This document shows, piece by piece, positions 5,532 to 57,790 of a DNA stretch of 64,000 bases. The stretch is taken from the NCBI GenBank assembly GCA_044892505.1, contig CM097882.1:465310001-465374000 (forward strand), read 5' to 3'. The stretch comes from Schmidtea nova (taxonomy: Eukaryota). Made by a program: the position numbers and the translations under genes. The first letter of the stretch is position 1; every line of letters starts with the position of its first letter. The notes beneath the pieces are model-generated. The model was not told where the DNA came from and did no database searches. It worked only from the letters and a program-made list of their open reading frames with translations.

Positions 5532-6703
5532 TGTTGAGGTTCCAAATATTTGCTATTTGCAATCTCAACTTGTTATTGGGGTGATTCGTATATAAATATC
5601 AAAAACAAAGTTTGTTTCAAAATTTTATTAATACAATAAAATTACTTTTTATTCCGTTTACAATTAATCACTCAAATTCTTTATTACACAATTTTTTTAA
5701 AAGAAAAAGTCGTGTCAAATCAATTCTTGTAATTGAACCTATTGGGTGACTGCTATGTAGTGCGTGCTATATTTTATTTGTGGATCCAATGTTTCTGATC
5801 CGGGTTTTAATAAGTTTTTCAAGATTTCCTTGAAAACTCGATATTGCGCAGATTTTAATTCTTTAGTTTAAAATTCGATTTTTAAAGCTATGAAATTTTT
5901 GGGCCTTTTTTCTGATTTTTCCATCAGCTTATATAGTAAATTTTTTATCTTTTTAACCATCATATAATTATATTTATTAAAATATTTATATTTCAATCGG
6001 TCTTTTTAACCATCATATAATTGTATTTATTAAAATATTTATATTTCAATCGGTATTTTTAACCGGATTTTGTTTATTTTATCTGGCTCAATATCTAGAA
6101 TAATATCTAGAATTTACATCTAGTCGTTTTACAATTTGCCGTTATCTAAAATTATTATTTTTTTATTAAATATATATCTAAAATTTATTATCTACACTTT
6201 GCCCTTTTTAATATATTATTATCTAAAATTATTATTTTTTTATTAAATAAAATTTTATTATCTACAATTTGCCCTTTTTAATATATTATTACTTCACATC
6301 TCATGCACTGTCATATTTTTTATTTATACAGATATATTACCTTATAGATTTTTACACAAATATATATATAAAATTCAAATGATAATATAAGGAATAATTA
6401 TGAAATTCAAGTACAGAATAATTATATACACTTCAAATACAGAATAATGACACTCATATACAAAATTTAAAAGTATATTAAATAATAAAGTTGTGATCAC
6501 ATAAACATAGTCATATAGTGATTATTTGAGGCTTTGTTGGCTTTGATTGAAGAAGGGTGATTTTTTGAGGCGATTGAAGATGGAGTCTGCATTATTTTCG
6601 GACTGGGTTTCTGCATATATATTAACCCTGTATCGATTAGGCCCTGTCCTGTAATATTTGTTCAGGGTAAATGCTTGGATGGGCTTCCCTCGATCATCCA
6701 ACA
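5532..6703 (-). repeat. 3' LTR (1172 bp, carries a 53-bp tandem duplication at 5950-6055)
   Basis: Direct repeat of 17580-18700 with about 5 substitutions, the 53-bp duplication and a 2-bp (TA) length difference. Confidence 0.97.
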
Positions 6704-8513
6704 TTCCTCCCAGGGCCGTCAAAGTAATGTCCTCATTACCTTTTTCGCTCAGGACCATTTCAATTTCTTTATCCTTTAATTTCATTACTGTTCTCTTGAA
6801 TCCTTTCTTGATTGTAAGATTTAGGGTATCATCTTCCTCAATTCGTCTTCCGAAATGGGTACATAATTGTTTTTCCGTTATCTCTTTTTGGTCGGCACCT
6901 ATAATGAAGCTAGGTTCTTCCTCCTCTTCTATTTCCATTTCAATGTCTGGTTCTGGTCCTAATTCGTCTTCTGCTTTTATTTTACTCTCCATTCCTTTTG
7001 TGAAGTCTTCTTCGTCGTCTTCCTCAACTGAAAAATACTCTTCGTCCGAATCTAAATCGCATATGTCTTCTCTTTCTTTGTATTTTTGTATTAGTTGCGG
7101 TTCGTTTTTAATCATTATTTGATTTTCTGGTGGTCCTTCTTCTTTTGTAATCATTAGGTCGTCATCACCATCTTCATGTATTGTTTCTTCCATATCTGAA
7201 TTTTCATCCATTATTATACTTTCTTCTTCGCTTTCCTTCAACTCTTCCATACATGATTTTCTGTTTTGCATCTGGTATAGGTCTCCTTTCATTTCGATAT
7301 CGTCTGTTATTGGTGTATCACTTTGTAACGCTGTTGAAGCTGCTGAATTCCATTTTATTATCGGTTCCCATTTGTCTTCTACTATTCCATATATTACCTT
7401 TAATATTGTTGTTGTCTTTCTGGCAGAAAATGGCTCACTTTCTACTAATGCTTCATTCAGTCTCTTATCTTTGAACCATCTCTTATGGTATTTAATCACT
7501 TGGTAAGCTAAGTTGGATAGCTTAATTTTGAGTGGATCCACGTTTTTCACGAATGAGCACATAAATTTATCTCCGGCCATTTCTCTCATTCCTGCAATGT
7601 TGTCTAGACCAAATGTTAGCATTTTTAATTTATCTATCATATCAAATCCTATGATTATTTTTCCCCACAACAGCTTTCTGATATCCCATAGCGCCTGGTA
7701 CTCATCTTCATTTCCGACGATACTTTCTTTATTAATCATTGTTTTTTCTGTGCAGAAGTTTTTTATCTTCGTTCTTGGGGTTATCTTTTTGTTGTATATC
7801 ATTTCACCGTTGTACTTTCTTATACATACTTCTACTGGTCGCTTGTTGTCATTTTTATCAATTGCAAATTTTGCATCCATGAACATAATTAGTTGGTGTC
7901 TCTCTTCTGTGGATAATTCATTGTGTGTGAAAGAGATTTTTTCATTTATCCAGCTTTGCTCGTACCAAGGTTTTGAAGGGATTGGCGGCATTGATTGGAA
8001 TGGATTTGATATCAGAGGGATATAGAGTATCTCGATTCCTATGACACACGGTAAGTTGTTCATTTGGATTATGAGGTGATTAAAATCGTCTGGCATACTT
8101 CTGTTGTTTGTAATTGTTTTGATGATGATTGAACAATTACTTGTTGTGATTATTGGTACTTTATGTTGGCAAATTGATACCTCGGTTTTTGTCATGTGGA
8201 ATAGGATTCTATGTGGTACCTTTTTTCCTTCGATTACCGCTTTGTCGACATTAAAATGTTTTTCAAATGTGCCGATTAGGTCTTTTAGTTTTGTTCGTCG
8301 AGCTTCATTAAATTTGATAATGTGTAGTTCTCTTTCTTCAATTTCCACTTTCATATCATTTGGGATGCATACTTGGTTTGGGAAGCTTCTGATTGTGATT
8401 GGATTTCCATCGGTACATATTTTGTTTTGTAGGGTTTTGTAAAAGTTTAGAGGGTGTTTGTTGATCATAGCCACATAGTTCATAGATCGAGAATAATTTG
8501 GCTCTGATTGCAT
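6522..8513 (-). CDS. ORF3: unknown N-terminal region, degenerate DEDDh (REX4/ISG20-like) exonuclease domain, acidic tail; ends inside the 3' LTR
   Basis: IMFMDAKF / PVEVCIRKYNGEMIYNKKITPRTKIKNFCTEKTMI / RKLLWGKIIIGFDM / KLSNLAYQVI / FSARKTTTILKVIY follow the spacing of REX4-type motifs. Start taken as MQSEP (8513); the frame is open to 9017. Confidence 0.75.
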   Translation of the reverse strand: MQSEPNYSRSMNYVAMINKHPLNFYKTLQNKICTDGNPITIRSFPNQVCIPNDMKVEIEERELHIIKFNEARRTKLKDLIGTFEKHFNVDKAVIEGKKVPHRILFHMTKTEVSICQHKVPIITTSNCSIIIKTITNNRSMPDDFNHLIIQMNNLPCVIGIEILYIPLISNPFQSMPPIPSKPWYEQSWINEKISFTHNELSTEERHQLIMFMDAKFAIDKNDNKRPVEVCIRKYNGEMIYNKKITPRTKIKNFCTEKTMINKESIVGNEDEYQALWDIRKLLWGKIIIGFDMIDKLKMLTFGLDNIAGMREMAGDKFMCSFVKNVDPLKIKLSNLAYQVIKYHKRWFKDKRLNEALVESEPFSARKTTTILKVIYGIVEDKWEPIIKWNSAASTALQSDTPITDDIEMKGDLYQMQNRKSCMEELKESEEESIIMDENSDMEETIHEDGDDDLMITKEEGPPENQIMIKNEPQLIQKYKEREDICDLDSDEEYFSVEEDDEEDFTKGMESKIKAEDELGPEPDIEMEIEEEEEPSFIIGADQKEITEKQLCTHFGRRIEEDDTLNLTIKKGFKRTVMKLKDKEIEMVLSEKGNEDITLTALGGMLDDRGKPIQAFTLNKYYRTGPNRYRVNIYAETQSENNADSIFNRLKKSPFFNQSQQSLK
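6704..6711 (-). promoter_or_regulatory. Polypurine tract GGGAGGAA
   Basis: Purine run immediately 5' of the 3' LTR on the minus strand; short. Confidence 0.7.
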
Positions 8514-8529
8514 TGTTAATTGAAGACAC

Positions 8530-8669
8530 AAGAATCGGGATATTGATTGATAAGTTAGTAAACAATAAAACACTAAGAATCGGGATATTGATTGATAAGT
8601 TAGCAAACAATAAAACACTAAGAATCGGGATATTGATTGATAAGTTAGTAAACGATAAAACACTAAGAA
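8530..8669. repeat. 45-bp tandem repeat, 3 copies
   Basis: Unit AAGAATCGGGATATTGATTGATAAGTTAGTAAACAATAAAACACT with 1-2 substitutions, just upstream of the ORF3 ATG. Confidence 0.9.
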
Positions 8670-8949
8670 TATAGATTGATAATGAGATCGAGATATGATT
8701 TTACGACTTGATTTGTGATTGGATTGAAAATTGGAACGATTTGATTGGGAGTTGGTTTGATTGTTTTGATTGTGCTGAGGATTTGATGTAAAACTGGCTT
8801 TATTGGGTTGTTTGTCAAATGGGTGACTTGTTTTTCTAAAAATAAAATGTAAATTTTTATGTTGAGAGCGTATTTCAGGTTTAACCTTATACGCTATTTT
8901 ATAGATATAGATATATGTGATTTTAATATATATTATTGACCAATTTAAC

Positions 8950-9975
8950 TTATACCAATGTGGACCTCGAATATTCACCTGGTATATATTTATCCAAATG
9001 GAAATGCCCTGGTACATTTCTGACCAGTTGGCTCCGATACCGCTGCCTTTTCCATTTGTACTTTTTATAAATTTGTACGCTAGTTATTAAAGCTAAAACT
9101 GCTAATGCTATTATTGATGTTGTGATGACATAAAAAGGCCAATGTGGATTTTTATCTTTTTTACGAAATGCTTGTAGTTCCTCTAAGTTATGTATCACTA
9201 TTGGTCTTCCTTGCCTTATTTTGATAGGTTCTTGTTTTTGTTTTTTGGCATTGTATTGTTTTTGGAGTTTGGCTATTCCAGTGCTTGTTGGTATTTCGTT
9301 TGTATGTAGTGTGGTATTTAGTCTATTATTTGATGTCGTTGTGCTTTTTATTTTATCGGGTGTTATGTTTTGGTTTTTTATTATATCCTTGGGTAATTGT
9401 TCTGTTTTTATCTTTTTGCATCTCCATGTTGTTGTATCTGTGTTTCTCTGTATGCAGATTCTATATATTGTATTAGGTGTTAGTTTTGTGAAATTAATAT
9501 AGTTTCCTCTTTCGATTTCGTTGGTTGTTCTGTCGTCCTTTCCTTTTATCATCTTTGGGTTTTTCCCATTCGTTGTTTGCATGTATAAATCAATTACTCC
9601 TCTATTTATGATAAATGCTCTAACTTCGTTTGTTGATATTTTTATTAATACTCTGTCAAATTCTATTGTTTCGGTTGAGCCAACAATTGTTATGATTGTT
9701 AAGAAGATAGCCGATATTATTAGTTTGTTATGAGATCTTAGATTATACTTGTGAGGTTTATCTATCGTGACCTCGGCTTCCGCCAACTTGCATCTGTTGA
9801 CATGTACTACTATTGGATCCTCGTTTTTATGCTTTTGTAAATGTAAATTCTCATTTATTACTTTTACTACTTCATATGGACCTTTATATGGTCTTGCTAA
9901 TTTTGTTGTCTTTCCCTTTCCTACTTGTGGTGACATAAGTCTAACCTTATCACCTACTTTAAAGTTGTGTGGTTT
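8950..9975 (-). CDS. Integrase C-terminus (GPY) fused in frame to signal peptide, FN3-like ectodomain, Thr-rich stalk, TM helix and basic tail
   Basis: FKVGDKV..RPYKGPYEV, YNLRS, hydrophobic LIISAIFLTIITIVGS, YINFTKLTPNTIYRICIQ, TM WPFYVITTSIIALAVLALITSVQIY, KKYKWKRQR, all in one frame. Confidence 0.75.
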   Translation of the reverse strand, partial: KPHNFKVGDKVRLMSPQVGKGKTTKLARPYKGPYEVVKVINENLHLQKHKNEDPIVVHVNRCKLAEAEVTIDKPHKYNLRSHNKLIISAIFLTIITIVGSTETIEFDRVLIKISTNEVRAFIINRGVIDLYMQTTNGKNPKMIKGKDDRTTNEIERGNYINFTKLTPNTIYRICIQRNTDTTTWRCKKIKTEQLPKDIIKNQNITPDKIKSTTTSNNRLNTTLHTNEIPTSTGIAKLQKQYNAKKQKQEPIKIRQGRPIVIHNLEELQAFRKKDKNPHWPFYVITTSIIALAVLALITSVQIYKKYKWKRQRYRSQLVRNVPGHFHLDKYIPGEYSRSTLV

Positions 9976-11040
9976 TTTGTACCTGTATTTTTTCTTGTTG
10001 CACATATTGTACACGCGTTACACCATCTCTTAACATCTTTCTTTAATTCTTCCCAGTAATATTTTTGTAATAATCTACTTGCTGTCTTTCTAGATGATAA
10101 GTGACCTCCTAATGCTCCATCGTGATATTGTAGTAGGAGTATTTGTCTTAATTTCTGAGGTACTACTATTAGTTGCTTACCATTGAAATCTTCTATTACT
10201 ACTAATTTCTTTGATATTTTATACTTTGAATTGTTTTCTTTTCTGATTTCATTTTTTATTTTACTGATCTCTGGGTCTTTCATCTGTTCCTCATATATAT
10301 TGATTGGTTTTTCTGCTACTAGTGCAAATATTTCAAGTGCTCCTAATTCTGGTATTCTTGATAGTGCATCTGCGTTTTTATTTATTCTACCTGGTTTATA
10401 TATAATTTTTAGGTGCATGTCTTGTATTTTCATTGCCCATTTAAGTAATCTACTTGATGTATCTTTATGTTTCCATAAACCTTCTAATGGTTTATGGTCA
10501 GTTCTTATTATCACTTCAGTCCCATATATGTATGGTTTGAATTGTTTTAGGGCGAATACTATTGCGTAACATTCTTTTTCTATTGTTGAATACCTCAGCT
10601 GTGCTCCTTTTAATGTTTTACTGGCATATGCTATTACGTAATCTTTCCCTTTTTCTTCTTCTTGGCCTAAGACTGCTCCTACGGCTTTCCCGCTGGCATC
10701 CGTCATTACTATAAACTGTTTTTCGAAATCTGGGTATCTTAACACGGGTGCTGTTATCAATCTTTCTTTTAGTTTATTGAATGCTTCTTGGTGTTCCTTT
10801 GTCCACTTCTTTTGTATCTTGTTAACTTTGCTGTTAATTTCTTGTACTATTAGCACATTTTTGCATTCTCCTTTTGTTCTAATTCCCTTTGTTAGTTCTA
10901 TTATCGGTGATGCTATCTTTGCATAATCTTGTATGAGTTTACGATAGTACCCTGTTAGACCTAAAAACCCCTGTACTTGTTGTACTGTTTTTGGTATTGG
11001 GAATTTCTTTACCACTTCTATTTTTTCTGGATTTGTTTTA
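9954..11040 (-). pseudogene. pol: Pol segment: RT connection, RNase H, integrase HHCC zinc finger (integrase core deleted)
   Basis: FLGLTGYYRK, VMTDASGKAVGAVL, YSTIEKECYAI, RTDHKPL, NKNADALSR, YHD..GGHLS..KYYW..CNACTIC, then an out-of-frame jump straight to the GPY region. Confidence 0.93.
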
Positions 11041-13741
11041 TCCCTTCTACTGTAACTATATGCCCTAGAAATAACGCCGAAGGTTCTGCCCATTTACACT
11101 TAGTTGGTTTAATTTTAATTTTTGCTTTTCTTAGTCTCTCGAGTACATTTGTTATATCTTTTAAGTGTTCCTCAAATGTTTTTGATGATATTAGTATATC
11201 ATCCATGTAAACTGCGCAATGTTGTACATTTACTAATATTGTATTCATTAGGCGCTGAAATGTAGCTGGTGCGTTAGTTAACCCGAAAGGTAATCGTGTG
11301 TACTCATATAAACCATCCTCGATAACAAATGCTGTTTTTTCCGCATCCCCTTCTTCCATTTGAATTTGCATATATCCCTTATTTGCGTCAATAACTGAAA
11401 AATACTTAGCATCCCTAAGTTTATCGTATTGCTCTTGTGCTTTTGGGAATGGGTATGAGTCTTTTACTGTTACATCATTTAATTTACGATAGTCAATGCA
11501 CATTCTTATTTCTCCGTCTTTCTTTTTAACGGGTACAATGGCTGATGCCCACTGTGAAAAACTCTGTTTTATTACACCTGCATCGTTTAGTTCTTTGATT
11601 TGTCGTTTTATTTCTTCTCTTAACTTGTATGGTACGCTGTATGGTCTTTGTTTTATTGGTCTCGCATTACCTGTATCTATTACATGTTTGATTATATCGG
11701 TATCTCCTAGATCAAATTCGTGTTTTGCAAAAACATCACTATATTTATCTATCAATGTTTGTAGTTGTGCTTGTTGTGTTATTGTTAAGTATTCATTATT
11801 AATTTTTACTTTGTCATATGATTTTATATTATTTATCTTACTAGGTTCGACTACTCCCTTGCCGTTATTATTCATCACGCTTATCTCACTGACTTCGTAT
11901 GTTTTTTCTAATTCACCTTTGAATAATTTTCCCAATTTCGTACCTTTGTGTATTTTATTATTACTTTTTTCATAATTTGCTATTCTCAATGGTATTATTC
12001 CCTTTCTCGGAATTACGCATTCATTGGTTAGCATTATATTCTGATTTTGTATAATTGCCGTTTCTGGCTCAAAAATAAAAGTGTCCTCACTTTTGATGTT
12101 AACTTTTAAGGGAATTATATGATCGCATTCATATTCCAATTCAAATGCTTCTAATGCAACAACTTCTGTGAACTTGGATTTATGTTTAATTGCTTTTCTC
12201 TTTATCATATTATCTGTTAAATCTATAATGCAATTTTCTAACTTGTTGAGTATATCGATTCCCAATATACATATGCTATTACATTCTTGCACCACTTTAA
12301 ATATGTGGTTTATTACCTGTTCTGGTGTTTCGACTATTAGTTCTATGTCTCCCTTTAGTGGAATACGATGTGCTGATAACGATACTACTTTATCCGTTGT
12401 GCTCATAATATTTCTTTTTTGATCATCTGTCAGTTGATCTTCTCTAATTAAGGATGTTGCTGCTCCTGTGTCTACTAATGCATTTATGATTATATTGTTT
12501 ATAATTATTCTAAGTCTTGGTCTTGCTTCGTTTGCTGCATCTAATCGTTCCATTGTTTCGACTTCTAAGCTATAACAACCATATATCTTTTTAGGTTCAC
12601 AATGACAATTCTTGTTTTCTCTAGGAATTTTGATTTCTATATTTTCTTGTAGCTCTTTTAGTTGTTCTCTTTGGTTTTCATATAGTCCTTGTTGTGGTAC
12701 ATTTCCTTCATGTGATATATGCGCTTTAATTATTTCCTCATCGTTTTCATCATCTACCAGTAATTGCCTTTCTTCACTCCTTTGGACTTTTATTAAACGT
12801 ATTTCCTTGTCGTGTTTCGCCGTAATAAGATATTTAGCTATAAATGGGCACAAACATGCTAATAATTTATATGAATTTCCAAATACTTGTTTTAGCTGTC
12901 TTAGTGATACTAGAGAAGAACATATCATTTTTAGTAATGCAACCGTATAATATATACCTAAGATCGTAGAAAACATGTTTCCAATGACTGCAAAGTATCC
13001 CCATATGCTATATAGTACTTTATATGCTACTTTTTTGAAGTATTCTTTTGATAATAACACATCAAAGTTGTAATTTCCTCCGTAACTTCCTTCGATAACT
13101 CTGTTAACCATTATTGAAAGTACTCTTTCTTTTTCGTTTGGAAATAGCACGTGTTTTCTTGCACTTTCTATAGCTTCTCTCGTATATATGCCATTACTGT
13201 CCATATCGTTGATTTCTTTAAACTCTAATCTTTTTTCTAGCTCTATGAGTTCTAATTTGAGTGGTTTCATTGCCTCCTTTCTATCTGACATAGATATCCA
13301 CATTTCGTCATTTATTTTGTATAATGGGTCTAATAGGTTAGTGCATTTTTCTATTTTTCTCGGTATATATGTTTTTTCTGTTAATATTCTAGTAATTAGT
13401 TGAAGGTATACCCTTTCTCCTTTATATATTACCGGTAATTCATTAGTGCACTGATTATTTGTTGCTAACGATACACTAACAGGTTTACATTGAAATGTCT
13501 GTATCACTTCTCCTACTATCCTTGCAAATGTTCCTTCTTCTGAGAAGATTATTGGTGCCATTAAATCTGGGTTTGTTACCGCCACTGCCATTTTTGTCCT
13601 CAATATTTCTCTGTTGAGTTTGCAATCGCTCATAATTGTTGATTGATATACTTTATCTAATTGTACTAGTTGGTTATGATAGAAAAAATCGATTTTATTG
13701 TTGAAGTATGATGCAAGTTTGACGTCGAATTTATTTACTTT
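11018..13741 (-). CDS. pol: Polyprotein segment: glycoprotein C-half with TM, aspartic protease, reverse transcriptase
   Basis: GEVIQTFQCKPV..CTNELPVIY..TRIL..NGIYT..FPNE..IWGYFAVIG (glycoprotein), ALVDTGAA and CILGIDIL (protease), RMCIDYRKLN, LPFGLTNAPATFQR, YMDDILI (RT). A 1-nt loss in an A-run near 11036-11040 shifts the frame. Confidence 0.93.
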   Translation of the reverse strand, partial: KVNKFDVKLASYFNNKIDFFYHNQLVQLDKVYQSTIMSDCKLNREILRTKMAVAVTNPDLMAPIIFSEEGTFARIVGEVIQTFQCKPVSVSLATNNQCTNELPVIYKGERVYLQLITRILTEKTYIPRKIEKCTNLLDPLYKINDEMWISMSDRKEAMKPLKLELIELEKRLEFKEINDMDSNGIYTREAIESARKHVLFPNEKERVLSIMVNRVIEGSYGGNYNFDVLLSKEYFKKVAYKVLYSIWGYFAVIGNMFSTILGIYYTVALLKMICSSLVSLRQLKQVFGNSYKLLACLCPFIAKYLITAKHDKEIRLIKVQRSEERQLLVDDENDEEIIKAHISHEGNVPQQGLYENQREQLKELQENIEIKIPRENKNCHCEPKKIYGCYSLEVETMERLDAANEARPRLRIIINNIIINALVDTGAATSLIREDQLTDDQKRNIMSTTDKVVSLSAHRIPLKGDIELIVETPEQVINHIFKVVQECNSICILGIDILNKLENCIIDLTDNMIKRKAIKHKSKFTEVVALEAFELEYECDHIIPLKVNIKSEDTFIFEPETAIIQNQNIMLTNECVIPRKGIIPLRIANYEKSNNKIHKGTKLGKLFKGELEKTYEVSEISVMNNNGKGVVEPSKINNIKSYDKVKINNEYLTITQQAQLQTLIDKYSDVFAKHEFDLGDTDIIKHVIDTGNARPIKQRPYSVPYKLREEIKRQIKELNDAGVIKQSFSQWASAIVPVKKKDGEIRMCIDYRKLNDVTVKDSYPFPKAQEQYDKLRDAKYFSVIDANKGYMQIQMEEGDAEKTAFVIEDGLYEYTRLPFGLTNAPATFQRLMNTILVNVQHCAVYMDDILISSKTFEEHLKDITNVLERLRKAKIKIKPTKCKWAEPSALFLGHIVTVEGIKQIQKK

Positions 13742-15367
13742 TTATTTTGCATCTTTGACTTCTTCTTTGCTTATGTATATCCCTTCATAATTAGTTTGTA
13801 TTATTTCCTTACCACATTTTACACTTTTCCTTTTACTAACAAACCTCATTGCTTCGTTTTCAGATTCTGACATATATATTGTTGGTGTATCTTTTTCTTG
13901 TACAATTGTTGTTTTCCTTTCTTGATCTCTCACCCTTTTTGAGTCTACTTCTGTGAACTGTTTTCCTTTGATTTCCCTAAATTTTAATGATTTTAATTTT
14001 GTTAATTGGCAATCATATTTATCTATTTTGTATATTAGCATTGATTCTCCTGTATCGCAATAAGATTCTTCTAATGTACAAAATTTGTATATCATCATTT
14101 TCTTTGAGCTGCTGTCGAATGATGCTTTGAACTTTCTCAGTTCTACCATGTAGTGTCTCCTTACTACAATATTACTCAGTTTTTCGCCCCATATTGTATA
14201 TTCTCCTCCTTCACAATATCCTCCTTTTGATGTCCATCCCACGACATTTACATCTTGTCTCATTTTTGCCCCTATCCTTGCTTCTAATTCTATTCCTTTA
14301 TGACCGCTATATTTTACTTTCTTTGTTTTAAATGCATCTTCACACTCTATTGGTGACAATATTACTGCTTCGGGTGTCCACGTAGGTTTTAACACTGTTC
14401 TTGCCCCAACATGACATATATATGCTTCCTCCTGATACTTTACTATGCACTCTTTGGCCTCTGTATGAATAAAGTCTGATTCTTGATAAACATGGAATAT
14501 TTGAGGCTCTGACATGATTAATTTAGTTGGATTTGCTTCAGGGCAATTTTCAACATCTAACAGTGAGTATTTTTGTCCCCACTTTGGATTTTGACAATCA
14601 TATGCTACCATTGCATTGCCTCCCTTGATTAAATCTAATAACAAAGTGATAATGACTATTACTATGGAGGTTATCGATTTACTCTCTGTCTTTGGTTTTA
14701 CTGTTGCTTTCTTTATTAATTGTTTTATTACCTCATCTGTATCACTCTCTTTATTCGTCGTATCTTTATCATATAATAGTTTCCATCCTCCTTTCTTTTT
14801 TATCCATGGTATTGCCTCTACTTTCAATCTTTTAAACATCATTGTTGCTACTTTTTCTAATTGCTCTTTTGGATTTTCCTTTATGAGCTTTTTATATCTT
14901 GCGGCCAAGTATGCCATGGCCGTTATTATTTTATCTTTATCTATCCCTGTATTAAACATGATTTTTAACACTGTTTTTTCATTTGCTTCCTCTGTAGCTA
15001 GTTCTTTAGTATCCTTTTTAATTAACATCATCCTTTCAGTTATATTTTCAATAAGTACTGTTGGCTTTGTTTCTGGAAATAGCTTAATATTCATTGCTTT
15101 TATTACTTCTTTTATTTTGTTTACGTCATTATTATCGTCTTGATACTCTGGTTGTTCATGTTTATGTTGATTTGCAATCTCTCTTAATCGTTCTGCTGTC
15201 TTCCTATTCTCCGATTTTTCTATTATTTCTGATTTTCGAGGTCTTCCTCTACCTCGTTTTGATGTTTCTGCATCTTTTGTTCTTGCTTCCTCAGCTATTC
15301 TTTCTATTGTTTCTTGTAAGTTACTATACTTTTCATCTATAGGTTTAAATATAATTTCTTCATCCAT
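13742..15367 (-). CDS. Polyprotein N-part: AT-hook, Bcl-2-like domain, signal anchor, glycoprotein N-half (premature TAA at 13742-13744; same frame continues)
   Basis: KRGRGRPRK; AERLREIANQ; MFNTGIDKDKIITAM; PWIKKKGGWKLL; SIVIVIITLLLDLI; AYDC..YSLLDVENC..YCEGG..YCDTGESMLIY. The 108 nt between the TAA and the next ORF are open and in frame. Confidence 0.85.
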   Translation of the reverse strand: MDEEIIFKPIDEKYSNLQETIERIAEEARTKDAETSKRGRGRPRKSEIIEKSENRKTAERLREIANQHKHEQPEYQDDNNDVNKIKEVIKAMNIKLFPETKPTVLIENITERMMLIKKDTKELATEEANEKTVLKIMFNTGIDKDKIITAMAYLAARYKKLIKENPKEQLEKVATMMFKRLKVEAIPWIKKKGGWKLLYDKDTTNKESDTDEVIKQLIKKATVKPKTESKSITSIVIVIITLLLDLIKGGNAMVAYDCQNPKWGQKYSLLDVENCPEANPTKLIMSEPQIFHVYQESDFIHTEAKECIVKYQEEAYICHVGARTVLKPTWTPEAVILSPIECEDAFKTKKVKYSGHKGIELEARIGAKMRQDVNVVGWTSKGGYCEGGEYTIWGEKLSNIVVRRHYMVELRKFKASFDSSSKKMMIYKFCTLEESYCDTGESMLIYKIDKYDCQLTKLKSLKFREIKGKQFTEVDSKRVRDQERKTTIVQEKDTPTIYMSESENEAMRFVSKRKSVKCGKEIIQTNYEGIYISKEEVKDAK

Positions 15368-17340
15368 TACTGATTTCTTTGTTTCGCTAGGTGATTTATA
15401 CTCAACTCAACCGACGGTACTGGCGTCATTATTTCATTGATCATTTGTTTTTCTACTGTGGCTACCACAATATTATCACTTACTGGGTTTATCCCATAAT
15501 CGATTAAGTACTCGTCACTTAATAATTCTATTCCGTTAAAATATAATTTTATTACATCCTTCTCTCCTATGGTTCCTGGCCATTTGGCTCTTACCATTCG
15601 TTTTAATTTGCTCACTTTAGTGCAAGGATGCATCTTTTGTTTAATACTAAAAAAATAATTATCATTTGATTCAATCGTTACATTTAGTGTTTCATGAAAT
15701 TTTTCATTTTTTCTTATATATTCTCCATAACATTTCAGTATCTCTTTTATTTCTATTTCTAATTCAAATACTCTCGTTACATTTTGTCTCTTTACCATCA
15801 TTGGTATTAAATTTCTAAGTCTCTCTAAATCAATCCCATTAACCTGTATTTTATTGATTACTCTTAATGTTTCATTGTCATCAAACGGTTGCTTATGCAA
15901 TACCTCTTTAAATTCCTCTATTAATTCTTTTTGTCTATTTTCTTCTGTAAGAAATATTTCATCTGCTTTTCTAATTTCCTTTAACTCATCATTATCAATA
16001 TCTACTTCATTTGTAAAGGTGCTAAATTCATTTATAGACATTTCAAGTTTTCTCTCAATAAGTCTTCCATATTGAGTTTTAAATTCTTTTAGTTCCTCTC
16101 TTAATATATTTATTTCTTTATTTGCTGATTCGAGCTCAGCACTATTTACTTGTTTTATCTCAGGCTCATTTTTAAATCTTACTCTTATTGGTGAATCTGC
16201 TCGTGGTTTATTACATACCTTTGCTAGGTGGCCATACTTTTGGCAATTATAACATTTTATTTGTCCATTAAAATTCACTTTATCTCTACCATCATTATTA
16301 TAAGTATTTCGCCTCACTGGGCTATCTTGTCTATTTCTCGAATTATCTCTATATCTATTATCTCTTCTATTATATTCGAAGCGACTATCTCTATTATTTT
16401 TATTATATCCACTGTAACTGTTTCTGTTATAACCAGAACGACTATCTCTAAAATTATCTCTGTTGTCTCTATCATTATCTCTATCAAAACGATTGTCTCT
16501 AAAACTGTCTCTATTATTGTTTCTTTGATAACTATCTTTAAAATTATTTCTATTTCTATTATCGAAATTTTTATTTCCTGGACTATTAAACCTTCCCCTG
16601 TTTTCAGGTGATTGGCTTCTATTAGGACTAAATTTTCTTCTATTATTAACAAATTTCAAGTATAATTGTTTCATTTCTTCCCAGGGAATACTATCATCCT
16701 TATTTCTCAACTCAGGTTTTACCTCGGGTTGTTTTTCAACTTCTACAGCATCTACCTCTGGTTTAAATCTATCTCTTTGTATTGCTTCGATACGTTTTGC
16801 CTTTTGAACTAACTCATTTAAGTCTTCATACTCAATTGTAATTAATGCTTTGTATAAATATTTTTGGATTCCGTTCCAAAACTGATCCTCGATTAACCTA
16901 CTAGTGTGATCTCCTGCACCAAATGCCTTTTTTGCTAATTCTGTTATCGTGTATATATATTCACCTACTGATTCTCTTGCTCCTTGGTATCTACTTCTAA
17001 ATTTTTGAACATTTATTTTTTGTAAGTCTCTATCTATTACTATTTCTTTTCTAAGGTTTGTAACTAACTCTTGATAATTAATGCCTTTACATGCTAAATT
17101 ATTGTATGCTTGTAATGCGTATCCTTTTAAATATAATGGAATTCGTTGTTTTAATTCATTTGTTTTCCATCCGCAAGCCTCTGCATATTGTGCGATTTCG
17201 GCAAAAAAGTCGTCGAACTTTTCAGGGTCTCCTTTATATGATTCTATTGGTAGTGTTTTTATAAAATTATGATTACTGTTGATGTTGTCTGTATTGCTGT
17301 TACTTCCACTATTATTGCTGCCTGTACTATTATTACTCAT
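15367..17340 (-). CDS. gag: Gag (capsid, RS/RD-rich linker, CCHC knuckle, coiled coil, C-terminal ubiquitin-like domain)
   Basis: YKGDP..FF..YAEACGW..LYLKGYALQAY, Q..RESVGEY..L..KAF, CYNCQKYGHLAKVC, then LYFNGIELLSDEYLIDYGI. Confidence 0.92.
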   Translation of the reverse strand: MSNNSTGSNNSGSNSNTDNINSNHNFIKTLPIESYKGDPEKFDDFFAEIAQYAEACGWKTNELKQRIPLYLKGYALQAYNNLACKGINYQELVTNLRKEIVIDRDLQKINVQKFRSRYQGARESVGEYIYTITELAKKAFGAGDHTSRLIEDQFWNGIQKYLYKALITIEYEDLNELVQKAKRIEAIQRDRFKPEVDAVEVEKQPEVKPELRNKDDSIPWEEMKQLYLKFVNNRRKFSPNRSQSPENRGRFNSPGNKNFDNRNRNNFKDSYQRNNNRDSFRDNRFDRDNDRDNRDNFRDSRSGYNRNSYSGYNKNNRDSRFEYNRRDNRYRDNSRNRQDSPVRRNTYNNDGRDKVNFNGQIKCYNCQKYGHLAKVCNKPRADSPIRVRFKNEPEIKQVNSAELESANKEINILREELKEFKTQYGRLIERKLEMSINEFSTFTNEVDIDNDELKEIRKADEIFLTEENRQKELIEEFKEVLHKQPFDDNETLRVINKIQVNGIDLERLRNLIPMMVKRQNVTRVFELEIEIKEILKCYGEYIRKNEKFHETLNVTIESNDNYFFSIKQKMHPCTKVSKLKRMVRAKWPGTIGEKDVIKLYFNGIELLSDEYLIDYGINPVSDNIVVATVEKQMINEIMTPVPSVELSINHLAKQRNQ

Positions 17341-17559
17341 TTTGTATATTACCTTATTTCTTAACTTGTGTAATATTTCAGGTTGCTTATCTATAATAAC
17401 TTTCTTTATCTTTTTACCTATTTTGTTATTGTTAACCTTATATGTTTGTATATTTTTGAATTTCTGTTTTGGTCAATAATATTTATATAAATATATTTTC
17501 CCAATATATATTACAATATCCCTCTGATCGCAATTCCTATCCCCCAATTGATTTTATTG

Positions 17560-17577
17560 TCCCGGTTCGCGGCACCA
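17560..17577 (-). promoter_or_regulatory. Primer binding site TGGTGCCGCGAACCGGGA, probably tRNA-Phe
   Basis: Lies 2 nt inside the 5' LTR and starts TGG; the complement ends CGGCACCA as in metazoan tRNA-Phe(GAA) 3' ends. Confidence 0.8.
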
Positions 17578-17579
17578 AA

Positions 17580-18700
17580 TGTTGAGGTTCCAAATATTTG
17601 CTATTTGCAATCTCAACTTGTTATTGGGGTGATTCGTATATAAATATCAAAAACAAAGTTTGTTTCAAAATTTTATTAATACAATAAAATTACTTTTTAT
17701 TCCGTTTACAATTAATCACTCAAATTCTTTATTACACAATTTTTTTAAAAGAAAAAGTCGTGTCAAATCAATTCTTGTAATTGAACCTATTGGGTGACTG
17801 CTATGTAGTGCGTGCTATATTTTATTTGTGGATCCAATGTTTCTGATCCGAGTTTTAATAAGTTTTTCAAGATTTCCTTGAAAACTCGATATTGCGCAGA
17901 TTTTAATTCTTTAGTTTAAAATTCGATTTTTAAAGCTATGAAATTTTTGGGCCTTTTTTCTGATTTTTCCATCAGCTTATATAGTAAATTTTTTATCTTT
18001 TTAACCATCATATAATTATATTTATTAAAATATTTATATTTCAATCGGTCTTTTTAACCGGATTTTGTTTATTTTATCTGGCTCAATATCTAGAATAATA
18101 TCTAGAATTTACATCTAGTCGTTTTACAATTTGCCGTTATCTAAAATTATTATTTTTTTATTAAATATATATCTAAAATTTATTATCTACACTTTGCCCT
18201 TTTTAATATATTATTATCTAAAATTATTATTTTTTTATTAAATAAAATTTTATTATCTACAATTTGCCCTTTTTAATATATTATTACTTCACATTTCATG
18301 CACTGTCATATTTTTTATTTATACAGATATATTACCTTATAGATTTTTACACAAATATATATATATAAAATTCAAATGATAATATACGGAATAATTATGA
18401 AATTCAAGTACAGAATAATTATATACACTTCAAATACAGAATAATGACACTCATATACACAATTTAAAAGTATATTAAATAATAAAGTTGTGATCACATA
18501 AACATAGTCATATAGTGATTATTTGAGGCTTTGTTGGCTTTGATTGAAGAAGGGTGATTATTTGAGGCGATTGAAGATGGAGTCTGCATTATTTTCGGAC
18601 TGGGTTTCTGCATATATATTAACCCTGTATCGATTAGGCCCTGTCCTGTAATATTTGTTCAGGGTAAATGCTTGGATGGGCTTCCCTCGATCATCCAACA
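17580..18700 (-). repeat. 5' LTR (1121 bp)
   Basis: Near-identical to 5532-6703; a TATATAA and several AATAAA are present on the minus strand. Confidence 0.97.
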
Positions 18701-19000: not shown

Positions 19001-19876
19001 TTAAATTTCAATATCCGGTGGACAAAAATCAGCAATAAAGCGAAGAATCTGGTCAAACGGTTCATCTTCGCCCCTGTTTCGTCGCCACATGAATTCCTCC
19101 ATATATGATTCCAGAAAAATACGCTTGGTGCCGCTCTGCCTTTTGTTTCGCCACTTCACAGTACGCCACATCCTTTCAGCATTTTGTGTGTGAGCACCGG
19201 TGTCCGGATCGACGAAATTGTAGCGGTGATTGACGCGCTGATGAGTAAAGCCAGTATCCTGCAGTCCGTTGTAAGCACGCCATGAATCGGTTATGATCGT
19301 AGAATTTTGGTGAACATGTTCGGCGATGATCGGCAAGAGAGTGGCGACACTTCGATCAATAACTCGGACAAGGAACACCTGTTTGGTTTCACGACAAATC
19401 CCTCCGAGCATCCATTGCTGTGGCAAAACACGACCCGCATGATTCTTCCGCTTGCTGAACAGGCTTTCATCGATTTCCACGACCATTCCTTCGCCTCCGA
19501 TTATCTGATGCTCTTGTTGAAGGCACCAAGAGCACACTTCGCGCATGAATTTGCAGTATTTGACCGTCGTCTCTCCGTCCATTTCCAGTTGACGTTCGCA
19601 GAATTTGATAGATGCCCATTCCTCAGCCCAGGCGTAGATGAATCGGATGATTGTTTCATAAGGTAGTCGGAGGCCTTCGGTCCAGTTTCCAACTCTCATT
19701 CTCACAGTTCGGTGACACGAGGCTCGATTGCACTTCCAATGGACTTGTTTTCCAAAATATAGCTTCATTTGATGTCCTTTGGCACGCACACGCATGGCCG
19801 GCAGAATCCCACGCTCTTGCAGAAATAGGACACTCTCTTCCTCTCCGTTGGGCAATTCGTGATATTTGAGAACCAT
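19001..19876 (-). CDS. Merlin (IS1595/ISXO2-like) DDE transposase, intact ORF
   Basis: VVEIDESLFSKRK, WMLGGICRET, STIITDSWRAY, HQRVNHRYNFVDPDTGAHTQNAERMW, SYMEEFMWR. A 15-bp inverted repeat lies at 18958-18972 / 20068-20082; true termini not established. Confidence 0.93.
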   Translation of the reverse strand: MVLKYHELPNGEEESVLFLQERGILPAMRVRAKGHQMKLYFGKQVHWKCNRASCHRTVRMRVGNWTEGLRLPYETIIRFIYAWAEEWASIKFCERQLEMDGETTVKYCKFMREVCSWCLQQEHQIIGGEGMVVEIDESLFSKRKNHAGRVLPQQWMLGGICRETKQVFLVRVIDRSVATLLPIIAEHVHQNSTIITDSWRAYNGLQDTGFTHQRVNHRYNFVDPDTGAHTQNAERMWRTVKWRNKRQSGTKRIFLESYMEEFMWRRNRGEDEPFDQILRFIADFCPPDIEI

Positions 19877-21123
19877 GAAAGGCTAAAGTAATGAAAAAAT
19901 AATGAGTATTTCTTGTTAAAATGTTAAAATAAAAAAATGAGAAAAATCATTTAAATATATTTTATTGATCAAAATCATTTAAATATTTTATGAAAAAATA
20001 ATGAGTATTTCTTGTTAAAATGTTAAAATAAAAAAATGAGAAAAATAAGATTTATGCAGAAAATAAAAAAAATGCGATCAGTATTTTATTTTTAGAAAGT
20101 TAGTATTTGGTAGTATGTGATGAGAACTGTAGAGCCCAGAAGATTATCCTATTAAAATCTGTCTTGGGACAGCTGGGGTGGGTGCACTGTACGTACCGCT
20201 GTTTGAGTGTGTGCTTGTGTATGTTAGTAAATGTTTTAATAAAATAAACTAACAAAATACAAAATCTTTCAACGAAACTATTTTAAGAACAAAAATTCAA
20301 AGTTACTCACGTAAAAAACGAATAGCCTGTAATTTCAATTTAGGGGAACTTGTTTCAGATTTACTTCTTCCTTTCAGTTAATTTCTTTCTATAGGGTAAT
20401 TTTCTTTTATCTTCTGTTCTTGATTGTTTATGAATTTTCCTAGGCAATTTTTCTGGTTTTATTTAGTTTTGGTTCCTTCGATTTTATTTTCATCTCGGCA
20501 ATTTATTTTGGTTTTCTTAATTTTCGTTAAACAATCTCTTTTGCACTTAGTAATTTTTTTATTTTTAAAATCCAATTTTTTTCTCTCGTAATTTATTTGT
20601 AATTTATAATCCATTTTTTTCTTTTATAGTTATTTCTAATTTTCAATGACAATTGATTTTTGTTTTGAATTTGAATTTTTTAAAATTTCCTTTTCTTTAA
20701 ATTAATTGTTTATTCATGGCTATTTGCCAAATGAACAAAATGACAGAATCAATAAAAAGGGGGGTCATCCTGTGTCCGCAAGGACGCCCACGACAATAAT
20801 CACACAATACAACATTAACAACAATAATCATAAAAATGCTGTATTAACACGGTGTATTTGATGATAGTGTGCCCTGGAACCTCGCTGGGCAACTCGAAAA
20901 AATAACTGGGATAGTCCTCAAGGTATTGGACATCTACATCGATTGGCCACTCTTGTTTTCCGTGCTAAACGATGTCATCGGGGCTGTCCCGAAATAGGCT
21001 AAAACTAGGCATTTCCCCTGTCTCGGCGAATCGTTCCTGATGTTCAGCTAGGATCTATCTTGCCAGATCTGTAGGAATCTGCTTGAAGTTGCCGTAGTCT
21101 AATATCGGCTTGTAATAATTTGT

Positions 21124-23507: not shown

Positions 23508-26090
23508 TAATTCCCCTTCATAGTAATGTGGTCCATGAAAATGGCGAAGCTCGAGACAACTGCGGTTTTCATGGTAAGAAGAGTAAGGGATTTAAGCTCA
23601 TTTGGGCGGAGACCAATATCAAGTAAAGGTTTGTCTTTAGCATGATCCCAGGAGCCAAAGGTGCCAACAACAAGGGCAGATATAATAGTCTACAGTTGTT
23701 AGTCTTACCGGTTTCAAGAGCAAGGTCGCGGTATTTTACAAAGTTGTCAAGGTGGGCGTTTTGGAAATTCAGCTGTGTGTCATATGGGACTTACATAAAG
23801 AATGTGTATGAGTTTGTTACGTTGAGATTTGATAGTTAGGTCATGACGGAGAGTGCTATCGACACCGGGAGGGGGACGTTCAATATCAATTTGGAATTTT
23901 TTCGAGATGAAGAAGTTGCTGACGGCAAGCAGGACCGCATTGTGTTTATTACGACGTGCATTCGTGGTTTGAGTGCAGTGGTTAAATATATGGGCTTGAA
24001 TCTCCCAGTCCAGGTTACAGAGTCTGCAATTGAGTGATTCACCATTTTTACGTCTCTGAGTTGAGAACTTTAACGGGAGCATGTAGTTACGTGCTTTGAG
24101 AAGAAACTAATATTAGTTGTCCGTGAGTACCGATTTCTTAAGAAGCATTCCAGATGATCGGTTCTCCCCCACGTTCTTCGAAATATGTCCTTGGCACGTC
24201 ATGATCATCTACTTGGAAGCATACCATTTACTGGTTGGACCGTGTAGCGTTGAGGGTCTTCACGAAGGTTTAGTGAGTTAATATAGATAAGGAAATAAGA
24301 GGTTTTAATTTCAGAGACGTGTCTGTAGACCAAATGTTTGATGTAATCGTTTTGCAGAAGTGCGGAATTTGCCAAAAAGGCATTTAGGTCCACCAATGTC
24401 TCATTTAATGTCAGAGTTAAGCAATTTCAGGGCTTTTGTTAAGCTATCATCTTTTGTCGAGAAACGGGTGTTCATGGCGTGTATCATTTCAGAGGTAATG
24501 AAGTTTCGCATTAAGGAGTCTTGGGAGTTGAGTAAGCGAAGTAGGTGAATAACACTTTGGATCAAGTATTCATCAATGCTTGGGGCAAGACAAGACCACC
24601 ATGAGAGGTGAGCGTAGAAGAAATTATTATTGATATTGTGATGGTAATCTTGCATGGCAGTTTTGACAAGAAATTTAATTTTTTGGTCAAATCTCATTTG
24701 TTTAGAGCGCTTTTGTACAGTTTTTTGCCGGCTGCTATCAAGAATCAGATGGTTGATAATGCAGTTGCGAAAAGGAAAGACAAACCGTGAGTGGATAAAG
24801 GCTTTGTAAACAAAGATCTTTTGAGCTGGATGTAGATCCGATTTGAATAGAGTTTTCGAGTCAGTAAGAGCAGTATCCAGGATGTGGTCTGTATTGTGCT
24901 TGATTTTACTACTAAAACCAACACCAATGTATTTGTAGATGTTGTTCTCATCGATGATTGGAATGACTTCATCAGAGATGTGAAAAGGTTCTTCATTGTG
25001 ATTTCAGTTGATTTGGAAATGTCCGCATTTACTGAGGCGGAATCTGAGGTTAGCCATCATAGTGGAGGAGGTGATATCATGTAGCATGAGTGACATACCA
25101 TTACTTGTTTCAGAGATCAGGGCAATATCATTGGCATACGCCATGATACTGATATCGTATCGATTAATGTGTAGTGGATGGTCAGCAAGTATGTTGCGTA
25201 GGATAAAGTTGACAGAGATACAGAACAATTTCATGGACACGGGGCATCCTTGTTTGACACCATTATGGATTGGGATATAGGGAGTGATTCGCTCTTCACA
25301 TTCATAGAAACATTGCACATCTGTAGAGAGTTCTTTTAGAAGTGCAATGGTTTTTGGGTGAAGTACAATTGTAGAAAGCGTGTGCCACATGAGATCGTGG
25401 GGGAGACTTCCAAAGGCATTGGCAAGGTCAAGCCAAATGACATTGAGATCTTTTTTATTACGGATGGCACATTCTTTGGTAAGAGTGAGAACAAAGTTGT
25501 GTTCGGCACAGCTATCAAGGATACGAACGGCTTTTTGGTTAGGGGAGAGATGATCACCAAGAGAAATCCATTCGAGAAGTCGCATATTGAGAATAGAATA
25601 GAAGATACGATAATAGGTATCAAGAATAGTTAATGAACGCCAGGATGAGAGAGTATGACAGGTTTTCTTTACGAGGTTTAATAATGAGTTTAGTCTTAAA
25701 AGTTTTCCAGACTTTAGGAGTGATATCATTGTGTAAGATATTGTTGAAGAGAGCAGTCAGAAAAGGCAATTTTGGGTCGAGAATTTTGCCCCAGTCATTG
25801 TATGATATATTGCTTTGTCCTGGTGCAGATAGTTTATCAAGAGTTTTAAATTCCTGGTAAGTGTCATCAGCAAGAATAGGGCCTTGAGTGAGAAGGTCAT
25901 AATGCAAATGTGGAGGAGATAGTTTACAAGCCTTAGGATTCATATGCTTCTTAGTTGTTGTAAAACCAGAGCACATGCGACCGAGTTCAAGAGTGGCAAG
26001 GGTTTCCTTTTTATTTAAAAGATTATCCATAGTAAGTTTTGTTTTCCTATCAAAGTTGGTGCGTAGTGTGAAGACAAGTTTCATTTCCAT
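23508..26090 (-). mobile_element. Degenerate non-LTR retrotransposon with restriction-like endonuclease (R2/NeSL-type)
   Basis: WRSLTILDTYYRIF, WLDLANAFGSLPH, GVKQGCPVS, YANDIALI, CRLCNLDWEIQAHIFNHC, RRNKHNAVL, LRHDLTI, ALVVGTFGSW; many stops and frameshifts. Confidence 0.88.
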
Positions 26091-31014: not shown

Positions 31015-33833
31015 CAGTGTTTCTCAAACTTTTGACTCGTGCGTACCTCTTGCAAACATTTTCCAACTCTGTGTACCCCCTACTAAAAATTGTAGGATTT
31101 AATATTTAAAAAAACTAATCAGGTATTACTATTTTTAATATAGGTTATGGTTCGAAAATATATACAAGCATATACAAATATTGTTTAAAAAGGCAAATAA
31201 TAATAATATGTATTTATTAATATCAGGGACGGTCCGATATGGTGACGCTTAGGCCACCTGTCAAAATTATAGAATAAATTTTTTTGCATAAAAGCAAGCT
31301 ATTTTGACGCCAAAATTTATCGACCCGACCCTGATTAATGCGATGGGTGATACTGCGTATGATCAGATACAATAGCATATAAATCTGGCTCTCGGTCTGA
31401 TAATTTCAATCTTAGATGCGGATCAACATCTAGCAACCTGTTTCTTTTTTTCTTTATATCCACAAGCGCAGAAAAAGCTACTTCACATAGATAGGAAGAG
31501 GAAAAAGGCAACAATATTTTTAAAACTTTTTCGGCCAATTCTGGATATACATTTAAATTTTCTAACCAGAATGTTGACAGTGAAAATTCTGTATATTTAT
31601 TTTTTACAAAACCATCATTGGACAAATTCAATAATTGTTCCTCTTCCTTTCTTGTTAGACTTACTGGCATAGATTCTGGAGATATATTAAATGGATATCT
31701 TATCCATTCTATATTTTCATGTAATTCCGGAAAATATACCTGGAGATCTGCTTGTAACGTCTTTAAATGTTCTTTTATACTTTTTAATATTTCAGAATCG
31801 ATCGTGTTATTGTTTGAATTTAAAATTAAATCGTGAAGACAAGTAAATGAATCAAATTCCCCATTAGTAACCCTTCTGTAGTACAGATTTAATTTTGACA
31901 ACATAGCTTTCACTTTATCTTGCACATGTATTATTGTAATATCTTTTCCTTGCAAAGATAAATTAAAAATATTTAGCATAGAAAATATGTCTGCTAAATA
32001 AGATAATTTACATAACCATTTCCAGTCACATAAATAGTATTTTAAGTCAAAATTATCATCAATCAGGAACTCTTTTATCTCTTCCCGAAGTTCAAATAAA
32101 CGATTTAGGATTTTGCCTCTCGAGAGCCAACGCACATCTGTATGGTAGAGAAGGTTAGTATGGGTACTTCCCATTTCTTCACATAGTTGTGAAAAAATAT
32201 GAGCATTCAATGGACGGCCTTTGATATAATTATTAATTTTTACACAATCATTCAATACATTTTTTAAATCTGTTGGCATACTCCGTGTTGCCAATGAATG
32301 CAACAATGCGTGGATTTAACATTTTTTGCAACAGACTGTATTCTTGCTACAAGACCTTTTTTTAGAGCCGACCATGCTTTTAGCTCCGTCTGTACTGATA
32401 CCAATACATTTATCCCAATTGATATTGTTCTCTCGCATAAAATGATTAATTATATTAAATATATCATCTCCTCTCGTATTCCCCAATAAGGGCTTACAAA
32501 ATAAAAATTCTTGTATCTTTTTGTCTTTTTCAAACCTAACAAATACAATTAAATTTGCAATGTCAGTAGATTCGTCCGTTTGTAAAGCAAAATACCTGCT
32601 CTGAATAATATCAGATAACAACATTTCTCTTATATTTGCAGCCATATTAATTATTCTCCTATGAACCGTGTCATTTGAGAGTGGAATAGAATCAAACATT
32701 TTCTTGGTCTCATCTCCTATCATTATTTCCCTCATAATTTTAGCTGCAGGTTTGACTTATCTTTCACCTATGTTTTCCACTGACCCACATTTTGCTATTA
32801 GAATTGATACTCGATATGAAACTTCCAAAATCTTTTTATTGTTGCCCTTTGCCAAATTTAACATTTTCATTTGAGACTGATTTAATTCTTAAAGCCTAAT
32901 TTCAAAAAAAATCAACTGTTCTGTCCTTATATTGAGCGTGCTTAGTTTCAAAATGACGTTTTAAATTCGATGGTTTCATGCTGTCTTTGGATAGAGTTTC
33001 GCGGCAAATAACGCATAATGGAATAGGTTCTTCTTCAGTCCCAGTCCAAGAAAAACCAAATGATAAATACCTTTTATCGTATTTTCTAAATTTTCTTTTT
33101 TTCTTTTTGGCCGGTCCAGTCGAAGCCTCAACTGGCCTATCTGATGTACAACATCCAGTCTTTACCCAACGGCATATTAAAATTAATTTACAATAAATAT
33201 TTATAACATTAATAATTATCGAACTTAAAAAATGGTTCAGTAAAATGTCAGTCAAATTAGCTAAAACTTAAATAATTTTCAGTTAAAGCTCTTAGAATTT
33301 ATGTAGTTAATTTGACAGATAAGGTGATATGTATTATAGTTATTTTAATGTTAATATGTGATGTAAAGTAAAGGCATTTTTATGTATGTACAAATAAATT
33401 TTTAACAGCTTACCTTATTGAGGAAAAAAAAATTTTTTCACAAAAAAATAGATATAACACATACACAATGCTCTCTGTACTCCAAAAAAATCTAAATTAT
33501 ACTGATTTCAAGTCGAGATACGTGGCTTATCGTAACAGTCGTGGCGACCGTTAAATAAATCACGGAATCTATAAAACGTCACTTTATGTATTTTCACGGA
33601 ATCTTTAAAACACCACAGCAAATTTTAGTCAGTCTATAAAAATAATTTTTATATTTGACAAAAAAAACTAGCTACTGGCATCTAGCTAGGGCGATACATT
33701 ATGAATATTCTTTGAATTATTTTATTTTTACTTTCTTTGGATTTGTACATTTCTGCATAGATTATTATGTTGAAAAAAAAAATTTCGCGTAGCTCATACG
33801 GATTCTTCGCGTACCCCGGTTTGAGAAACACTG
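31015..33833 (-). mobile_element. hAT Buster/Charlie-type transposon nested in the outer hAT; frameshifted transposase (33255-31335)
   Basis: 15-bp TIR CAGTGTTTCTCAAAC, 8-bp TSD GTGTAGAA (31007-31014, 33834-33841), MKPSNLKRH, LQTDESTD, STDGAKSM, VRWLSRG, SSSYLCEVAFS. Confidence 0.95.
31224..31333. mobile_element. 110-bp hAT-like MITE at the inner transposase stop codon
   Basis: Termini CAGGGACGG / CCGACCCTG; flanks ATTAATAT / ATTAATGC (6 of 8 match). Confidence 0.45.
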
Positions 33834-56507: not shown

Positions 56508-56600
56508 TACTGAAAATATTTTTAAATGAAACAATTACTTTGAGAACGAGTATTTAAAACAAATATAAACAATAATATTAATTAAATATAATTTTTAAAT

Positions 56601-57224: not shown

Positions 57225-57244
57225 ATTGATTTACAGTAATAATA

Positions 57245-57787: not shown

Positions 57788-57790
57788 ACA

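Follow-up and report, generated by a model that had tools for sequence, protein, structure and literature searches.

A divergent Bcl-2-like domain within the Gag-to-integrase polyprotein of a compact Burro-type Gypsy element of Schmidtea nova

An open reading frame at 15367-13742 in a 64,000-nucleotide stretch of Schmidtea nova DNA (GenBank assembly GCA_044892505.1, contig CM097882.1, positions 465,310,001 to 465,374,000; hereafter the window) was predicted from the sequence to begin with an AT-hook and a Bcl-2-like domain that head an Env-Pol polyprotein. The locus raises the question of whether this domain belongs to the Bcl-2 family, what kind of element carries it, and what it would do there.

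The element and its unbroken copies

The domain lies in a 13.2 kb LTR element on the minus strand at 5532-18700 (Table 1). Aligned over 1,135 bases, the two LTRs mismatch at 7 positions, and a 4 bp target duplication can be read from the flanks of the element. Four lesions interrupt the copy in the window: a small deletion near 15,400 shifts the frame, env is cut by a stop codon at 13,742-13,744, the frame shifts again near 11,050, and at about 9,975 the integrase core is missing. Comparison with unbroken copies shows that the deletion near 15,400 is the reason that an ORF starting at 15367 exists. With these breaks, ORF 15367-13742 represents only a piece of the coding frame, and the Bcl-2-like domain, rather than heading an Env-Pol polyprotein as had been proposed, is internal to a polyprotein that runs from Gag to integrase. 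A TAATG stop-start coupling of the Gag and Bcl-2 ORFs, suggested by the window, was rejected as an artefact of the break in this copy.

Table 1. Features of the element in the window. Positions are those of the window.
Feature	Position	Strand	Basis or remark
5′ LTR	17580..18700	-	Termini TGTTG...CAACA; comparison with 3′ LTR
Gag part of polyprotein, CCHC knuckle 16260-16210	15370..17337	-	Stops at frameshift near 15,400 in window copy
Ubiquitin-2/SUMO-like (Ubl) domain	15487..15681	-	PF11976 E 0.01, weak, under cut-off; equivalent place in P0001 (see text): PF00240 E 0.031
AT-hook KRGRGRPRK	15233..15259	-	Pfam E 0.06, 13.7 bits vs cut-off 17.4; identity to HMGA AT-hook 1
BH3-like amphipathic helix TAERLREIANQ, N-terminal to Bcl-2 fold	15167..15199	-	Lacks the BH3 Asp
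Bcl-2-like helical domain	14759..15130	-	Pfam, profile, predicted fold
BH1-position segment MFNTGIDKDKIITAMAYL	14906..14959	-	DKDK at 14941-14930
BH2 segment PWIKKKGGWKLL	14774..14809	-	W..GGW motif
Hydrophobic helix	14612..14674	-	Hydropathy in three subfamilies and spacing; putative Env signal/tail anchor
Monjiviricetes-type fusion glycoprotein (Env)	12725..14611	-	PF24664 E 3.7e-20 and 4.5e-62; stop at 13744-13742
Protease, RT, RNase H, integrase zinc finger	9957..12529	-	Frameshift near 11,050; integrase core gone at ~9,975
Polyprotein tail: second signal-like helix, short ectodomain, TM helix, basic tail	8953..9750	-	Hydropathy; no Pfam family
ORF2, ISG20/REX4-like DEDDh exonuclease fold	6525..8510	-	Catalytic positions apparently substituted
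3′ LTR	5532..6703	-	LTR comparison

Candidate copies in the genome searched (G000) numbered 1,859, and the 150 that were scored are 86-100% identical; 30 of these 150 have an open frame of at least 3,000 aa. Two natural copies examined in full each contain a single ORF of 3,058-3,059 aa extending from Gag to past the integrase. The order in unbroken copies is Gag-CCHC-Ubl-AT-hook-Bcl-2-hydrophobic helix-Env-PR-RT-RH-IN, followed by a second signal-like helix and a TM segment, with ORF2 downstream. Two further subfamilies in the same genome have ORFs of 2,992 and 2,993 aa, and the copies examined span 13.2-14.1 kb with LTRs of 1.1-1.6 kb and ORFs of 2,992-3,059 aa. Of 30 subfamily-1 loci, 28 keep the Ubl, the Bcl-2-like domain and the start of Env together in a single open frame (the exceptions being the window copy and one locus interrupted by a stop), as do 29 of 30 subfamily-2 loci, though conservation within subfamilies is inflated as loci were picked by similarity to the Bcl-2 region. 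The element is a 13-14 kb Gypsy retrotransposon that has been recently active and is small, young and abundant, with three divergent subfamilies.

Seven of 9 old subfamily-2-like loci (L112-L116, L118 and L120) fuse Gag-Ubl-Bcl-2-anchor directly to the C-terminal tail without Env and Pol, and this form is an amplified derivative with an internal deletion. The polyprotein tail includes an ectodomain of ~170 aa between its second signal-like helix and its TM segment and basic tail in all three subfamilies. The core of ORF2 (~7883-7400, minus strand) matches ISG20L2 (PDB) with an E of 1.7e-4 and RNase_T in the Atlas at 0.95; the first Asp apart, its catalytic positions look substituted in the three subfamilies, and the product is possibly a pseudo-nuclease or an RNA-binding accessory protein. 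The window also has other mobile elements (19004-19882, 25007-25756, 31338-32315 and 56592-61931), namely an ISXO2-like transposase, another RT, part of a hAT element, and a group of ORFs, including A32-like ATPase and chromodomain ORFs, that resembles a Maverick.

Bcl-2 homology and the altered motifs

The Pfam Bcl-2 family (PF00452) matches the domain in the window with an E of 8.5e-7 and 29.9-30.8 bits, just below the cut-off of 31.4. All 11 aligned element members are matched across BH1-BH2 (best E 2e-8), several copies scoring above the cut-off. A gapless alignment with Bcl-xL over 69-74 aa places DKDK opposite NWGR, as originally predicted, and gives an E of ~0.1 for the single sequence; a profile built from 11 element copies only finds Bcl-xL at an E of 6.2e-7, and all of the 60 matches listed are Bcl-xL or Bcl-2. 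The N-terminal half of the domain found no Bcl-2 sequence match in either the single-sequence or the profile comparisons. Searching 1.84 billion representatives with a profile recovered three proteins, P0001 to P0003, and word-based homologue searches among longer proteins gave none in one case and only P0001 in another, which is weak evidence either way.

An AlphaFold model was built from 12 sequences, namely 9 copies of the element, P0001, P0003 and P0002 (a fragment of 82 aa), with no host gene of G000 and no PDB sequence in the input, and has a pLDDT of 74.9 and a pTM of 0.77; a single-sequence AlphaFold model (pLDDT 44.8) was set aside. A Bcl-2 helical bundle is predicted. In a VIA fold comparison rows 1-15 are all Bcl-2 family (Z 6.5-7.4, rmsd 3.2-4.6, 101-117 aligned residues), as are 28 of the 31 top rows, with the first unrelated row at Z 6.4; these Z values are middling, and the best of 7.4 may reflect an arrangement common among helical bundles. 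The viral Bcl-2 mimics CNP058, GIV66, A179L, KsBcl-2, BHRF1 and F1L score Z 5.8-7.3 against the model. Foldseek returned nothing at E ≤0.001, the best row being Bcl-xL at 3.3e-3 (TM 0.32-0.52, rmsd 7-15 Å across rows), a BFVD fold search also returned nothing at E ≤0.001 with viral Bcl-2-like proteins in its top rows, and the ESM Atlas gave no usable match for the domain. The Bcl-2 assignment rests mainly on sequence, and the predicted fold is consistent with it though not strong alone. The identity of the domain and the architecture of its element are nonetheless almost certain.

Motifs were tallied over 102 element matches in the fetched loci, which had been chosen by similarity, some copies having been fetched twice. 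The BH2 W..GGW is kept in 99 of these, and W-x-x-x-x-G-G-W is invariant as far as P0001-P0003, so that the predicted WIxxxGGW motif is conserved in related copies. The BH1 tetrapeptides are DKDK (48), NRDR (22), NQDR (12), DENR (9), DKDR (4), NQDK (3), NQEK (2), NWDR (1) and NRDI (1), and those of P0001, P0002 and P0003 are SRNK, NQEK and DKSR. Glycine at the equivalent of Bcl-xL G138 is found in none of the 102 matches and in none of the three distant proteins; the position holds Asp, Asn, Glu or Ser, and the BH1 Trp is lost too. In Bcl-xL, G138A leaves neither Bax binding nor cell rescue (PMC2148190). The NWGR with its Gly138 equivalent that marks pro-survival members is thus missing. The R139 equivalent is Arg or Lys in 101 of the 102. 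A proposal that a sister family keeps NW was rejected; it applies to 1 of 35 such rows (L047), at a CGG/CAG/TGG site, and is likely CpG decay. NWGR is retained by 2 non-element Bcl-2 loci of G000, and several other non-element loci have no BH1 glycine, hence loss of this residue is by itself no proof of a new function.

These changes bear on whether the domain could act as a classical anti-apoptotic mimic that sequesters the BH3 motifs of host Bak/Bax despite its altered BH1. Bcl-xL is the closest solved relative and the Arg/Lys at R139 is nearly constant, and some viral Bcl-2 proteins bind BH3 despite an altered BH1. Against this, the Trp and the glycine are gone, and the predicted anchor described below is of the ER rather than the mitochondrial type; such a role is improbable.

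The sequence TAERLREIANQ is present as predicted; its labelling as BH3 finds no support. L-x-x-hydrophobic-G/A-D-x-hydrophobic in helix 2 was not found. The AERLREIANQ helix is common to all three subfamilies, with the BH3 Asp replaced by N or S in each, and is absent from P0001. It occupies residues 10-19 of the model, and Bcl-2 structures align only to ~27-157; because it falls outside the aligned stretch, the helix is, on the model, not the BH3 of the domain itself. A Bak BH3 exon of the host was sought in five 10-kb stretches (50 kb) and was not found there.

The AT-hook stood up. KRGRGRPRK is identical to the nonapeptide of HMGA AT-hook 1 (PMC11526092), and it has the R-G-R-P core and basic flanks of such hooks and may bind DNA. 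When the linker was shuffled 20,000 times, the pattern [KR].RGRP[KR] never arose. In G000 the hook is confined to subfamily 1 and missing from the other two, occurring in 44 of the 48 DKDK rows and in 2 of 54 others (both DKDR and close to subfamily 1). P0001, ~30% identical, also has an RGRP hook between Ubl and Bcl-2 (shuffle frequency at most 1e-4). As it is limited to one subfamily yet recurs in P0001 beyond shuffle expectation, the AT-hook is real but dispensable.

Relationship to Burro, origin and constraint

P0001 has the order Gag-CCHC-Ubl-Bcl-2-Env, identical to that of the element at ~30% identity, and in P0003 the Bcl-2 domain is followed by the Env start. A similar order is on record for planarian Burro elements. 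Section 7 of PMC6431247 notes a BCL2-like motif in Burro-2, -3 and -4, a Ubi2/SUMO-like domain before BCL2 and a mononegavirus-like env in frame between BCL2 and PR, such that Burro (GYPSM1, Burro1-4) has one ORF with Gag-CCHC, Ubi2/SUMO-like, BCL2-like, in-frame env and PR-RT-RH-IN. The Ubl-Bcl-2-Env order is already published there and the core finding is known; the original prediction overstated its novelty.

Burro elements differ in being >30 kb with an ORF of 4,873-5,140 aa (PMC6431247), compared with 13-14 kb, LTRs of 1.1-1.6 kb and an ORF of ~3,000 aa here. The window element has one CCHC match, and seven window translations gave no Pfam match at E ≤1 to BIR, MATH, ankyrin or dUTPase. 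Conversely, section 7 of PMC6431247 does not mention for Burro an AT-hook, a membrane module at the C-terminus or an exonuclease-like ORF2. Since size and cargo do not agree, the element is filed as compact Burro-type and not as Burro proper, a likeness drawn from the published domain order. The compact form, the uniform loss of the BH1 glycine, the AT-hook distribution, the BH3-like helix outside the fold and the fixed BH2-to-Env spacing are added here, and other papers on Burro may have covered such compact relatives, the hook or the altered BH1 before. PMC11410931, in the part available, mentions Burro by size alone. No paper listed in the literature searches deals with what the Bcl-2 domain of Burro does, or with a helix serving as both signal and anchor.

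Apoptosis-related cargo occurs in another type of element in G000. A 25-kb LTR element (C1:119,234,955-119,260,038; L125, L121-L123) with LTRs of 4.1 kb that are 99.98% identical carries ankyrin and an aspartic protease, RING-TRAF-MATH and a 399-aa BIR ORF, and contains no match to the RT of the polyprotein. Of 1,295 BIR candidates in this genome 150 were scored, all above the cut-off and mostly with the 399-aa frame, and the element is likely a non-autonomous high-copy IAP carrier.

Compared with Bcl-xL and cellular Bcl-2 proteins, the domain of the element shares gapless BH1-BH2, the BH2 W..GGW, a helical bundle and a hydrophobic helix downstream, and differs in the replaced NWGR, an unalignable N-terminal half and its place in a polyprotein. 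In 6 of 14 non-element Bcl-2 loci of G000 a GT directly follows the BH2 Trp codon, whereas the element reads through. The apparent lack of an intron at this point is what acquisition through an RNA, or from a virus, would be expected to leave. The best non-element score to the element domain, among 16 sequences, was that of locus L042 (E 1.5e-9). Among the Bcl-2-like sequences outside the element, two small sets of divergent duplicates (L044/L056 and L048/L062/L065) also have no intron after BH2, and some contain stops. Viral Bcl-2 mimics are free-standing genes of DNA viruses. The six mimics compared above resemble the domain in fold scores, divergent sequence and carriage by a parasite genome, and differ from it in that here Bcl-2 is a polyprotein domain of a retroelement, with an anchor predicted to double as the Env signal.

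Between subfamilies the Bcl-2 domain is 39-48% identical, compared with 72-95% for Gag, Env, RT and IN. Its dN is 0.41-0.52 with dS of 1.3-3.3 (near saturation), and dN is 0.05-0.17 for Env and 0.02-0.10 for RT. The flanking linkers are 17-46% identical. By these measures the domain is constrained yet faster-evolving than the core of the element, and the faster rate could reflect relaxed constraint and not host conflict. A captured Bcl-2 gene decaying to a spacer ahead of the Env signal would account for a dN that is high relative to the core genes and for the lost functional motifs. However, dN is well under dS, unlike in the flanking linkers, W-x-x-x-x-G-G-W is invariant to P0001-P0003 and the fold is still predicted; this conservation largely refutes a vestigial passenger already, leaving it very improbable.

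Predicted topology and possible role

The hydrophobic helix that had been predicted after BH2 was found, beginning 36 aa past GGW. The gap from GGW to Env is 59 aa in copy A, 61 aa in P0001 and 60 aa in P0003. In all three subfamilies the Env start is preceded by a run of basic residues, a hydrophobic core and, at -3/-1, small residues, and each subfamily has four hydrophobic segments. A helix shared as Env signal and tail anchor fits the fixed spacing and the small -3/-1 residues, a role suggested by these sequence features.

The helix after BH2 would open translocation of Env as an internal signal, and signal peptidase would cut ahead of the x-x-A/V-Y-D-C Env start. Gag-Ubl-(AT-hook)-Bcl-2 would then remain at the cytosolic face of the ER with the helix as its C-terminal anchor, the Env TM would bring Pol back to the cytosol, and the protease of the element may trim the cytosolic portion. 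This topology is probable. In flaviviruses and HCV the C-terminal helix of the capsid is the signal for the next glycoprotein; the likeness is an analogy only, and the element differs in having a Bcl-2 fold between capsid and anchor.

An arrangement of this kind could also serve the particle itself. At the end of Gag, the bundle and anchor might tether it to the membrane or stand in for a matrix domain, placing the capsid beside its own Env for budding and taking no part in signalling. The position between Gag and Env and the BH2-to-Env spacing are fixed at ~30% identity, the core and BH2 are retained while the BH1 Trp and Gly are gone, and a Pfam scan of the Gag ORF found no matrix family. 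Nevertheless, the evolutionary rate of the domain is several times that of Gag, Env and RT, and the related elements treated in section 7 of PMC6431247 gather apoptosis and ubiquitin modules, which points to host targets; a purely structural part is unlikely, if the least so of the alternatives. A more speculative extension, doubtful at present, is that a grooveless bundle, the AT-hook and the Env-signal anchor tether Gag, together with nucleic acid or chromatin, to the membrane of the ER or nuclear envelope within a four-pass, flavivirus-like polyprotein, in a minimal enveloped-retrovirus-like lineage of which the giant Burro elements are cargo-laden derivatives.

A non-canonical host modulator is favoured over the structural tether, the classical BH3 sink and the relic because of the changes to the groove. 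The ER-anchored domain would modulate cell-death or stress signalling of the host via a remodelled groove, and the chances for and against this role are judged about equal, the host target being the least certain part of the explanation. The reading as a whole, a divergent Bcl-2-fold domain in the Gag-Ubl-Bcl-2-Env-Pol polyprotein of a compact Burro-type Gypsy element that acts as an ER-tethered host modulator, is moderately likely.

As a precedent for a host-modulating role, the IAP of Burro1 is reported to protect planarian stem cells (PMC13465017). The family described here is small, young and abundant and has no IAP of its own, and would be a cleaner system than Burro1 for the function of retroelement Bcl-2 in a stem-cell-rich animal. 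The absence of the BH1 glycine throughout the family leads one to expect a non-canonical activity.
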